From Escherichia coli (lineage in GTDB: Bacteria; Pseudomonadota; Gammaproteobacteria; Enterobacterales; Enterobacteriaceae): a stretch of DNA of 64,000 nucleotides. This document shows, one piece after another, positions 40,975-46,619 of this stretch. Position 1 is the stretch's first letter. Every line of letters begins with the position of its first letter. The stretch lies in NCBI RefSeq assembly GCF_013315695.1, contig NZ_CP054353.1. The stretch is one strand, 5' to 3'. Below the pieces are notes generated by a model. It searched no databases, had not been told where the DNA came from, and was given only the letters and a program-made list of their open reading frames with translations. A program made the position numbers and the translations under genes.

Positions 40975-41298
40975 ATGAAGTGGATAGTAATTGACACGGT
41001 AATTCAACCTACATGCGGTATATCTTTTTCAGCCATATGGGGTGATATGAAAATGATCATCTGGTATCAATCCACTATATTTCTTCCTCCTGGCAGGATA
41101 TTTACACCGGTTAAGTCTGGTATTATCCTTAAGGATAAAGAATATCCTATTACTATTTATAACATCGCACCATTCAACAAGGATTTATGGAGTTTACTCA
41201 AAAGCAGTCAAGAGTGTCCTCCAGGAGAAAGCAAAATAACAAATAAATGTTTGCATAATAGTTGCATTATAAAAATATGCCCATATGGGCTCAAGTAA
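40975..41298 (+). CDS. iraM: anti-adaptor protein IraM (inhibits RssB-mediated RpoS degradation)
   Basis: 107 aa [23 protein letters not shown]... matching IraM/YcgW; very AT-rich surroundings. Confidence 0.85.
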
Positions 41299-41349
41299 TG
41301 GGCTTCATATAAATATTCTCGACATGCTATTAATAATATCCACATAAAT

Positions 41350-41395
41350 AAAACAACGGGCGTGTTATACGCCCGTTTCAATATTTAACACATGT
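41350..41395 (-). terminator. icd rho-independent terminator (copy B of the repeat)
   Basis: aacgggcgt-ataac-acgcccgtt hairpin plus T-tract on the minus strand, immediately 3' of icd. Confidence 0.6.
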
Positions 41396-41400
41396 AGAGA

Positions 41401-42651
41401 TTACATGTTCTTGATGATTGCATCACCAAACTCTGAACATTTCAGCAGTTTAGCGCCTTCCATCAGACGTTCGAAGTCATAGGTTACGGTCTTGGCATTG
41501 ATTGCGCCTTCCATACCTTTAACAATCAAGTCTGCGGCTTCAGTCCAGCCCATATGGCGTAACATCATCTCAGCGGAGAGAATAATAGAGCCTGGGTTTA
41601 CTTTGTCCTGACCGGCATATTTCGGCGCAGTACCGTGGGTGGCTTCAAACAGGGCGCATTCGTCACCGATGTTTGCGCCAGGGGCGATACCGATACCGCC
41701 AACCTGCGCTGCCAGGGCGTCAGAAATGTAGTCACCGTTCAGGTTCATACAGGCGATAACATCATATTCAGCCGGACGCAGCAGGATCTGTTGCAGGAAT
41801 GCATCAGCAATCACGTCTTTAATGACGATCTCTTTGCCGGTGTTCGGGTTTTTAACTTTCAGCCACGGGCCGCCGTCGATCAGTTCACCGCCAAACTCTT
41901 CACGCGCCAGCTGGTAGCCCCAGTCTTTAAACGCGCCTTCGGTGAACTTCATGATGTTGCCTTTGTGCACCAGGGTCACAGAGTCACGATCGTTAGCAAT
42001 TGCGTATTCGATCGCTGCACGAACCAGACGTTTGGTGCCTTCTTCAGAACACGGCTTAATACCGATACCGCAATGTTCCGGGAAGCGAATTTTCTTCACG
42101 CCCATCTCTTCACGCAGGAATTTAATCACTTTCTCAGCGTCGGCAGAGTCTGCTTTCCATTCGATACCCGCATAAATGTCTTCCGAGTTTTCACGGAAGA
42201 TAACCATATCGGTCAGTTCAGGGTGTTTAACCGGGCTTGGAGTGCCCTGATAGTAACGTACCGGACGCAGGCAGATGTAGAGATCCAGTTCCTGGCGCAG
42301 AGCAACGTTGAGAGAGCGAATACCGCCACCAACCGGAGTGGTCAGCGGGCCTTTGATGGCAACGCGATATTCACGAATCAGATCAAGGGTTTCAGCAGGT
42401 AGCCAGACATCCTGACCATAAACCTGTGTGGATTTTTCACCGGTGTAAATTTCCATCCAGGAGATTTTACGCTCGCCTTTATAGGCTTTCTCGACTGCAG
42501 CGTCGACCACTTTCAGCATGGCTGGGGTTACATCTACACCGATTCCATCACCTTCAATGTAAGGGATAATCGGATTTTCAGGAACGTTGAGTTTGCCGTT
42601 TTGCAGGGTGATCTTCTTGCCTTGTGCCGGAACAACTACTTTACTTTCCAT
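41401..42651 (-). CDS. icd: NADP-dependent isocitrate dehydrogenase
   Basis: 416 aa from [40 protein letters not shown]. Confidence 0.95.
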
Positions 42652-42824
42652 TCACCTCTCCTTCGAGCGCTACTGGTTTGCTCGTCTGCCACCACGTTGC
42701 ATATGCGTTTGCGTCCTGCGATACGGATGCGTTAGAGCAATTTTTTGTTAATGATTTGTAATTGGCTTGTCAATACTACCCTATTGTTTGCCGTCATGAA
42801 AGATGCGCGTTATTAGGCTATAAT

Positions 42825-42896
42825 GCGGCAATTCATAATCTCTGAAAATACCATGCAAAAAACTTCTTTTAGACCAAAGACAGTATTTTTCTGACC
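42825..42896 (+). pseudogene. orphaned ancestral 5' end of rluE (23 codons), separated from the rest of the gene by an islet
   Basis: Encodes MRQFIISENTMQKTSFR then diverges to PKTVFF*; MRQFIISENTMQKTSFRN is the K-12 RluE N-terminus by recall. Confidence 0.55.
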
Positions 42897-43232
42897 TTCA
42901 AATAAGGTATTAAATATCAATAATTTATATCAGATTTTAAGCAATAAAAAAAACCACCAGAGATAACTAACAAGGTGCTATTTGGTCAAAATTTGACATT
43001 ACTCGATTCAGCGACTATCTCACTTTGAGCACTATTGGGAAAATTATCAAAAGTCATAGTTGAAGCGACAAGCAACGAGTAAATTATGGCATCCCCCCTT
43101 TTTGAGGTTCACATGAAACGCTTTGCACTGATAGCTGTGAAACTCGTTGCCTTTACTGGTTCTGCATCTGCTGCAACCGAAGAAATCAACTTCAAGTAAC
43201 AGAAACACTATATAACAATGGAGTGTTGACAA

Positions 43233-43682
43233 ATGGATACTACCGAAGAACGCAATGGAACATATTTCTACAGAGGACACCCGAACCTGTCCAAAATAGA
43301 ACTACTCAACGTCATATTCCTTGAAGAATTCTGTAAGGAATTGGGGATTGATTCGGTATCAGGTGCAGCAATCTTATCTGGTCAACCGTGGCTGGGTACA
43401 AGAGCGAAGCCGCAAGGGGCAACCCTGGGAACAAGTGTTGTCTCAAAGTATGCGCGTATACTGATGAGAGATGCACGCATGCCTTTTGGTATTTCTGTTC
43501 ATACACCAGTGGGTGTAAGGATGCAGAAATCTAATAAGCTTGCTGCAATTATCGCTCGTTGGGTCCCGTGGATTGGTTGGGCTTCACTGTCGATGAGTCT
43601 TTACAGGGTTTCGACTCGTACCCAGGAAAAATACAATCTGATTGCCAAACCTCAAGACCGTATTAAGTGGACTTCCTTCTAA
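43233..43682 (+). CDS. hypothetical protein, first gene of an overlapping two-gene cassette
   Basis: 149 aa ORF; below-genome-average GC by eye; hydrophobic stretch AAIIARWVPWIGWASLSMSL near the C-terminus; 16-nt overlap with the next gene. Confidence 0.5.
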   Translation: MDTTEERNGTYFYRGHPNLSKIELLNVIFLEEFCKELGIDSVSGAAILSGQPWLGTRAKPQGATLGTSVVSKYARILMRDARMPFGISVHTPVGVRMQKSNKLAAIIARWVPWIGWASLSMSLYRVSTRTQEKYNLIAKPQDRIKWTSF

Positions 43683-44017
43683 TGGCGACAACAATCACAG
43701 ACGAAGTTTTAGCACTGTTCCGTGATGAGATTCCAGGTTATCAGGATGACCACGGGAAGGAAATTCCGTTAGAACTGGACTCTGATTTGTTCGACTATCC
43801 ACGAGATGATTTAGAGGACGCTATACGGAAATACAAAGAGAGGTTTGGGATTAACCTGGATAATCTGGACTGGTCTTTGTACCTTCCATGGGAGTCTGCA
43901 CCATTGCTTCAACGATGGTTCAAGCTCAAGCGGGAAGAGGTAGAAACAACACGTTTACCGTTAACTGTACGGATGTTTGCAGAATCAGCAGAAGCGGGAA
44001 AATGGCTGTATCAGTAG
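43667..44017 (+). CDS. hypothetical acidic protein (possibly DUF1493-like), second gene of the cassette
   Basis: 116 aa ORF; acidic LELDSDLFDYPRDDLEDAI segment and C-terminal ...GKWLYQ; family assignment from memory only. Confidence 0.5.
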   Translation: MDFLLMATTITDEVLALFRDEIPGYQDDHGKEIPLELDSDLFDYPRDDLEDAIRKYKERFGINLDNLDWSLYLPWESAPLLQRWFKLKREEVETTRLPLTVRMFAESAEAGKWLYQ

Positions 44018-44337
44018 AATAAAAAAGAAGGCTGCGATGCCCCTCTTATTACTGCTGATGATGGTAGTGGTAAAGCATCATCCTAAACTTGAACAGTGAA
44101 GTGCTGTCACCCATCAGTAATACAGAAACACTATTTTTCATACCAGTATTTATTCAATTCATCAATGTAAAATGTGTTCATTGGGCCATATTTATCACCA
44201 TGCAGCCACACAACCGCTGCTCACTAACCCAGGTATTGATGAAACCGCGCTGAAGAGCCTGAACCCTGAACCTCTAACGAGTACCTTAAAAGTCCAATGC
44301 AATCCGACACTGTGCTACCCTCTGCGTAAAGCTCTAT

Positions 44338-44988
44338 TTGGAATTTACCATGAAATACTTTAGCGATTCTAAATCTTCTTTTAGAAAAAAACAGGTTAGT
44401 CGACTAAACTCGCAACACTCCACTAAGCGTAAACCTGAAAACCAGCCCACGCGTGTGATCCTGTTCAATAAACCCTACGATGTTCTTCCGCAGTTCACCG
44501 ATGAAGCCGGACGCAAAACATTAAAAGAATTCATCCCGGTTCAGGGCGTTTATGCAGCAGGTCGTCTTGACCGCGATAGCGAAGGGTTACTGGTGCTGAC
44601 CAATAACGGCGCGTTGCAGGCGCGTTTAACCCAGCCGGGTAAACGCACCGGAAAAATCTATTATGTGCAGGTGGAAGGTATTCCCACACAAGACGCACTT
44701 GAAGCCTTGCGCAATGGCGTAACCTTAAATGATGGCCCTACCCTGCCCGCAGGCGTAGAGCTGGTTGACGAACCCGCGTGGTTATGGCCGCGGAATCCAC
44801 CAATTCGTGAACGCAAAAGTATTCCCACCAGCTGGCTTAAGATCACCTTATATGAAGGACGTAATCGCCAGGTGCGCCGCATGACCGCCCATGTTGGTTT
44901 CCCCACGCTGCGACTGATTCGCTATGCGATGGGTGATTACTCTTTGGATAATCTTGCCAACGGCGAATGGCGAGAAGCGACAGATTAA
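44338..44988 (+). CDS. rluE: 23S rRNA pseudouridine synthase RluE with a replaced, divergent N-terminus
   Basis: 216 aa; from [19 protein letters not shown] onward matches RluE; first ~35 residues differ from the K-12 N-terminus; alternative start ATG 44350. Confidence 0.8.
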
Positions 44989-44997
44989 GGACGCAAA

Positions 44998-46619
<1,622 letters not shown>

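Follow-up and report, generated by a model that had tools for sequence, protein, structure and literature searches.

The two overlapping genes at positions 43233 to 44017 of the window (the whole 64-kb stretch of Escherichia coli DNA analyzed here) are probably an effector-immunity pair of the type known from polymorphic toxins. Gene 1 (43233 to 43682, + strand) encodes the predicted toxin, a 149-aa protein of the STM2901 family (DUF8209, PF26636), and gene 2 (43682 to 44017, + strand) encodes the predicted immunity protein, a DUF1493 (PF07377) protein of 111 aa. This kind of system is well known, and the DUF8209/STM2901 and DUF1493 families are uncharacterized. Openly searchable full texts contained no functional statement on DUF1493, STM2901, STM2902, PF07377, DUF8209, or PF26636. 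[quoted passage not shown]

Gene products and gene junction

The product of gene 1 is read from an ATG that follows, at a distance of 10 nt, a candidate ribosome-binding site visible in the sequence (GGAG, 43219 to 43222, + strand). It matched the NCBIfam model NF045926 (“STM2901 family”) with 156 bits (cutoff of 110), residues 8 to 142 aligning to profile positions 1 to 140, and its homologues carry PF26636. The protein is small (16.8 kDa) and basic (pI 10.0), and residues T67, S68, S71, R109, and P112 are invariant throughout the family, in which no conserved acidic, His, or Cys residue was found. An earlier note, made from the DNA letters and a list of open reading frames, had described a hydrophobic, Trp-rich segment near the C terminus. 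We located it at residues 103 to 123 (LAAIIARWVPWIGWASLSMSLY), which are the peak hydrophobic stretch of the protein and contain three of its five Trp residues; the Kyte-Doolittle maximum over 19 residues is 1.24, under the typical transmembrane value. With hydrophobicity this moderate, the membrane insertion that had been suggested may or may not occur, and the cytoplasmic immunity protein speaks for an action in the cytoplasm. Searches of Pfam with gene 1 and 41 family members returned no toxin family, only noise. When PDB sequences were searched with the single proteins and with profiles, gene 1 matched no solved toxin chain and gene 2 was unmatched, and no fold match was found for gene 1.

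The C-terminal motif GRxVPxxGWxxLAYDxGxxxY of the predicted toxin (profile positions 110 to 142, ca. 43554 to 43655 in the window) matches residues 764 to 796 of a phage tape measure protein (8vjh_Q; 33-residue segment LTRLIPIVGWALLAYDIGAIMY, E value of 5e-4). A tape measure protein and the toxin would both travel in the lumen of a tube, that of the tail or that of Hcp. Since the toxin matched no tape-measure PHROG, we treat the similarity as a curiosity.

Gene 2 falls in Pfam DUF1493, the family that had been suggested as a check (E value of 1.6e-29, residues 9 to 115 on model positions 3 to 107 of 108). As had been described, its product is small and acidic (pI 4.5) and ends in GKWLYQ; it has neither a signal peptide nor a membrane segment. 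By structure comparison, the predicted DUF1493 model has an acyl-carrier-protein (ACP)-like fold, and no DNA-binding fold appeared among its top structural matches. The ACP relationship of gene 2 is based on this predicted fold together with a Bacteroidota homologue; hhalign gave no match between the E. coli-type DUF1493 profile and AcpP. Ser36 of AcpP aligns to Gly in the Bacteroidota homologue and to Arg41 in gene 2, in a column that is occupied by Gly, Ser, His, or Thr in other DUF1493 proteins. Because the column that corresponds to the phosphopantetheine Ser of the DSL motif is variable, DUF1493 cannot generally be a carrier. The dN/dS values of both genes against orthologues in other genera are ca. 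0.04 to 0.2, with dS saturated. Both are real genes under purifying selection, not chance open reading frames.

The open reading frames that had been reported, of 149 aa (43233 to 43682, + strand) and 116 aa (43667 to 44017, + strand, GTG start), are present as claimed, but the 16-nt overlap between them needs the GTG at 43667, and the comparative data point to another start. In loci of other species with toxins ending in ...WTSF*, the ATG within the stop/start junction T[AG]ATG is invariant. The codon 15 nt upstream of this ATG is ATG or GTG, but CTG in one locus (L039), and it reads ATG or GTG only because it overlaps the conserved Lys/Gln-Trp of gene 1. Toxins of a second class, which end in ...KLW, have the junction ATGGTAA or ATGGTAG. 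PGAP, which annotates both genes, also places the start of gene 2 at ATG 43682. The junction comparison therefore gives a gene 2 of 111 aa (43682 to 44017) with a 1-nt overlap, located in the TAATG at 43680 to 43684 (+ strand), where the stop of gene 1 and the conserved ATG of gene 2 share one base. The translational coupling that had been read into the longer overlap is still the likely arrangement, by way of this junction instead.

Rhs fusions, DUF1493 pairing, and linkage to hcp

To place gene 1 among its relatives, we drew on a phmmer search of 1.84 billion representative proteins, which gave 179 matches. In many of the longer ones the DUF8209 domain is found at the extreme C terminus, and the motif that ends the Rhs core (YDPxxGRFxxxDP...NxYxYxxNNPxxxxDPxG) lies just upstream of it. 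TIGR03696 (Rhs_assc_core) scored above its cutoff in 8 of the 10 long homologues tested, always N-terminal to the STM2901-like domain, and the AFDB50 Foldseek neighbors of gene 1 include RHS-named proteins, one of them with 1,128 aa. The position of the domain in these proteins therefore suggests that it acts as a swappable toxic tip. A variable tip after the core end is what defines a polymorphic toxin, and the family has this arrangement; the E. coli gene is free-standing. A Bacteroidota-type contig of 1 Mb (L002) has, after a complete Rhs gene, an orphan Rhs tip that carries the DUF8209 domain. Two tandem DUF1493-like genes (hhalign, 86%) come behind this tip, the first of them joined to it through another TAATG overlap. 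DUF1493 was not detectable in the gene downstream of the DUF8209-tipped Rhs on another contig (L003).

The N terminus of the free-standing enterobacterial toxins, MDTxEExNGTYFY (residues 1 to 13, window 43233 to 43271), is nearly invariant down to ca. 40% identity, whereas the Rhs-fused forms vary at these residues; the free-standing toxin may use this stretch as a signal for loading or recognition. Some metagenomic DUF8209 proteins (P0254, P0275, P0198, P0227, P0221, and P0255) have non-Rhs N-terminal regions. One of this subgroup has a lipoprotein-like signal, and several have a W(E/T)DLD...C...Y.G-type motif before the domain and a Cys near the C terminus, which suggests a possible second delivery context beside Rhs.

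A locus scan with one genome per species yielded 66 loci, mostly from Enterobacterales, plus Burkholderia, a set biased to free-standing Enterobacterales copies because the search alignment consisted of enterobacterial sequences only. With a narrow HMM, DUF1493 was directly downstream in ca. 60 loci; with a broadened HMM, it was directly downstream and on the same strand in all 65 species-level loci (65/65). The Burkholderia downstream partner was independently identified as DUF1493 by hhalign (92%). The identities of toxin and partner co-vary (Spearman coefficient of 0.62, a value reached by none of 500 permutations), although linkage alone could account for this. DUF1493 diverges faster, with ca. 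30% identity where the toxins share 40 to 60%. The downstream gene is thus placed, and diversifies with the toxin, in the way an immunity gene does. Extra DUF1493 copies or arrays of several pairs were found in several genomes (L035, L037, L041, and L067), and Erwinia typographi has four loci. Constant pairing, co-variation, and extra copies are the usual behavior of effector-immunity pairs.

When the neighboring open reading frames at the 66 loci were clustered, a single recurrent third gene emerged. Its 160-aa product is TssD/Hcp, the T6SS tube protein (TIGR03344, 128 to 150 bits, cutoff of 58.9). Of the 65 loci, 26 have hcp immediately upstream of the toxin gene in the same orientation, typically with its end 11 nt before the toxin ATG, and 40 have it no more than 1 kb away. 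Among the loci with adjacent hcp are those of three of the closer non-Escherichia relatives of the E. coli gene (L005, L006, and L008, 78 to 88% identity). A gene for a small protein behind hcp is what one classically expects of an Hcp-lumen cargo. In size, the gene 1 protein (16.8 kDa) is comparable to cargoes of Hcp1, which range from Tse2 (17.7 kDa) and Tse4 (19.2 kDa) up to Tse3 (44.4 kDa) (PMC8262886). The 64-kb window itself contains neither hcp, vgrG, PAAR, nor any other T6SS gene, intact or as a remnant. At the DNA level, the similarity to other genera starts exactly at the ATG of gene 1 and stops at the end of gene 2, and when E. coli genomes were searched for an hcp that could serve the pair, only ca. 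67% DNA identity to generic hcp genes was seen.

Occurrence and insertion site

The cassette is present in 374 of 5,426 complete E. coli genomes, among them strains labeled ST648 and ST38. In these carriers it is highly uniform, with at least 99% identity in 373 and full length in 371, and an Escherichia sp. genome has a like arrangement at 96.7% identity. Disrupted E. coli copies also occur, by IS1 or IS3 insertions (H7 and H8) and in IAI39, as do toxin variants with a truncation or frameshift. In Salmonella, the namesake pair adjoins invH at the edge of SPI-1, without hcp. Homologues are found on 153 plasmid records (63 from Serratia and 54 from Pantoea), many of the plasmid copies being without hcp; in one Serratia IncFII plasmid the pair sits beside the partition genes. 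Both families have PHROG entries, and the P2-like temperate Erwinia phage EtG (L075, positions 3501 to 4261) carries a DUF8209 gene with an overlapping 104-aa gene (EtG_24/EtG_23), the latter probably DUF1493. This pair is a moron on the opposite strand between the tail fiber assembly and tail sheath genes, a position that we take to be a hotspot for accessory and defense genes in P2-like phages. We rejected a phage origin of the E. coli copy: the sole “phage” record from E. coli is a prophage call reaching into the chromosomal flank.

The window is part of the E. coli chromosome, and its gene order is bluF-bluR-ycgX-iraM-icd, the cassette, and then rluE-nudJ-mnmA-hflD-purB-phoPQ. Relative to cassette-free E. 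coli such as ATCC 8739, blastn delimits an insert of 1,497 bp (42874 to 44370) that contains both genes and AT-rich spacers and has a GC content of 42.1%, versus 48.5% for the whole window. Against a cassette-free locus (L070), window positions 41152 to 42873 align to 1 to 1722 and positions 44371 to 45500 to 1708 to 2837, so that the two segments overlap by 15 bp. A query spanning 42652 to 44337 is 100% identical to NZ_OZ547117.1, and in cassette-free genomes the matched part is its positions 1 to 222 only. The insert is flanked by an imperfect direct repeat, of which the left copy (AAAACTTCTTTTAGACCAAA, 42859 to 42878) belongs to the original 5′ end of rluE and the right copy (AAATCTTCTTTTAGAAAAAA, 44371 to 44390) is within the rluE reading frame now used. 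The copies are 85% identical (repeat search, family D3), with the common core (A)AAxCTTCTTTTAGA. The first 17 codons of the original rluE (MRQFIISENTMQKTSFR, 42823 to 42873, + strand) are left severed beside icd; their coordinates were mapped through L070, in which rluE starts at position 1672. As annotated in this lineage, rluE (44350 to 44988, + strand) begins with insert-derived codons (MKYFSDSK...), and the remainder is the ordinary gene. RluE therefore has a different N terminus here, the insertion having split the gene start and supplied new first codons. For annotation, this means that the rewritten rluE start in ca. 7% of complete E. coli genomes is explained by a small accessory insert.

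Other features of the surroundings are given as observations. Upstream of gene 1, a short open reading frame (43114 to 43200, + strand, or from the ATG at 43086) encodes a signal-peptide-like sequence of 28 aa (MKRFALIAVKLVAFTGSASA followed by ATEEINFK); one record (L071, 5854 to 5967) lists it as a hypothetical protein, and it may be what is left of a gene for an exported protein. A 13-nt direct repeat (ACAGAAACACTAT) has two exact copies, just before gene 1 (43199 to 43211) and 105 nt past gene 2 (44122 to 44134), and a looser third copy at 42875 to 42896. These repeats may be module boundaries of a former array. In the region downstream of icd (41298 to 41401) there is no e14-type prophage, and iraM directly adjoins icd; another E. 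coli with the cassette (ON470584) has a lambdoid integrase and excisionase downstream of icd. Farther away, an IS2 element (IS3 family, 32436 to 33990) interrupts ymgF, according to the annotation of the identical RefSeq record, and a leucine-rich-repeat domain gene (10071 to 11507) is annotated as a pseudogene with an internal stop.

Proposed mechanism and alternatives

In the model that we favor, gene 1 would be a free-standing copy of a toxin domain that elsewhere is found as the C-terminal end of Rhs proteins or as a small protein after hcp, the latter being the usual signature of a cargo in the type VI tube lumen, and from these contexts we infer toxicity and delivery by a T6SS. Gene 2 would be the cognate immunity protein, translated by coupling at the TAATG junction. 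Its product would remain in the cytoplasm of the producer and neutralize the basic toxin, most likely by direct binding; the charges of the two proteins are complementary (pI 10.0 versus 4.5). Immunity proteins against T6SS effectors that act in the periplasm or membrane are normally exported or membrane bound. The soluble, cytoplasmic nature of this one makes the target cell's cytoplasm the most likely site of toxin action, and since the toxin family conserves no acidic, His, or Cys residue, the toxin may bind its target rather than catalyze a reaction in the classical way. In the E. coli lineage, the pair would have entered the 5′ end of rluE without hcp, and delivery, if it continues, would need an Hcp/T6SS encoded elsewhere in the genome. 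A secretion-independent role is possible because the Salmonella locus and many plasmid copies are also without hcp.

The ACP-like fold predicted for the immunity protein is the most suggestive lead and could point to the target of the toxin. DUF1493 could be an ACP decoy, with ACP itself, or a step of lipid synthesis at which ACP docks, being bound or modified by the DUF8209 toxin, an idea that we consider a long shot. Protection would then come from an ACP-shaped, nonmodifiable surface of the immunity protein. The idea would fit a basic toxin without a catalytic acid, His, or Cys, in which the invariant T-S..S / R set could grip phosphate, and if true it would give T6SS/Rhs effectors a target and a principle of immunity that are both new.

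The earlier note had left two main readings side by side, an orphan toxin/immunity pair and a small antiphage pair. The former has gained from the Rhs C-terminal, toxin-type position of the domain, the constant DUF1493 partner, and the hcp gene often adjacent in other genera. The latter found no direct support: PADLOC-DB v2 has no family that matches either protein at an E value of ≤1, the 64-kb window shows no defense-island context, and the only link to phages is the moron of the P2-like Erwinia phage. A broader version of it, a self-contained toxin-antitoxin-like module that works inside the producer without secretion, for plasmid or island addiction or abortive infection against phages, and in which loss of a labile partner or a phage trigger frees the toxin, seems to us unlikely. 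It would accommodate the pair standing alone without hcp in E. coli and Salmonella, the 153 plasmid records with the copy beside the partition genes of the Serratia IncFII plasmid, the phage moron, and the PHROG entries of both families. Besides the PADLOC result, however, the toxin gene comes first, the start of gene 2 is embedded in the stop of gene 1, the ACP-like DUF1493 has no recognizable DNA-binding domain, and the E. coli “phage” record runs as a prophage call into the chromosomal flank. Such a module would also leave unexplained why the domain is a Rhs tip and why 40 of 65 loci have hcp at a distance of 1 kb or less.

It is likewise improbable that the E. coli pair is a stranded remnant, with a toxin that is no longer delivered and a pair kept as immunity against neighboring Enterobacteriaceae that fire the same toxin, both genes being retained together because their translation is coupled. 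The absence of hcp here, when it lies beside the closest relatives in other genera, would agree with this, as would the orphan DUF1493 copies without toxin elsewhere (L067 and L041), the E. coli copies disrupted by IS1/IS3 in H7 and H8 and in IAI39, and the truncated or frameshifted toxin variants. Yet 371 of 374 genomes have an intact toxin gene of essentially unchanged sequence, which is not what a functionless gene would show, although the lineage may be young. We give very little credence to gene 1 being an ordinary small membrane or phage protein and gene 2 an unrelated neighbor. Automatic UniProt names such as “phage membrane protein,” the moderately hydrophobic C-terminal segment, and the weak local match to a tape measure protein speak for it, but the hydropathy is under the transmembrane level, no tape-measure PHROG was matched, and neither the strict pairing with DUF1493 across phyla nor the Rhs fusion and hcp linkage would be expected.

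With the effector-immunity reading, DUF8209/STM2901 and DUF1493, two domains that lack an assigned function, acquire a role that can be tested. The two are common across Enterobacterales, with examples in the SPI-1-adjacent pair of Salmonella, the plasmids of Serratia and Pantoea, and E. coli ST38 and ST648. If confirmed, it would add an effector family to the T6SS/Rhs arsenal, together with an immunity protein built on the acyl-carrier-protein fold.

Comparison with known systems

Like type II toxin-antitoxin systems, the cassette pairs a basic toxin with an acidic neutralizer through coupled translation, and it is found on plasmids and in one prophage. Most type II antitoxins, however, have a DNA-binding domain, are usually encoded first, and autoregulate the operon. 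Here the toxin gene is first, the second protein has no DNA-binding fold, and the toxin domain is common to secreted Rhs proteins and linked to hcp. Compared with acyl and peptidyl carrier proteins, gene 2 has an extra conserved C-terminal helix (MFAESAEAGKW), and the position aligned to the conserved Ser of D-S-L is occupied by Arg41.

Among T6SS effectors, the small Tse1 to Tse4 and in particular Tse2/Tsi2 of Pseudomonas aeruginosa are close in kind. The gene 1 protein is of similar size to Tse2 (16.8 versus 17.7 kDa), the hcp linkage of its family would imply dependence on Hcp, and the immunity protein, like Tsi2, is small, acidic, helical, and cytoplasmic, which would imply a cytoplasmic target. 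The ACP-like immunity fold and the lack of hcp at the E. coli locus set the cassette apart from Tse2/Tsi2. With respect to the Rhs-CT/RhsI systems of Enterobacteriaceae, the E. coli gene differs in having no Rhs shell, PAAR, or delivery domain, so that the whole 149-aa protein is the toxin domain, and DUF8209 belongs to none of the toxin families described in Pfam. As in those systems, however, the toxin domain of the family adjoins the core-end domain of Rhs proteins on its C-terminal side in other phyla, the immunity gene is immediately downstream, often with overlapping stop and start codons, and orphan arrays and extra immunity copies occur.
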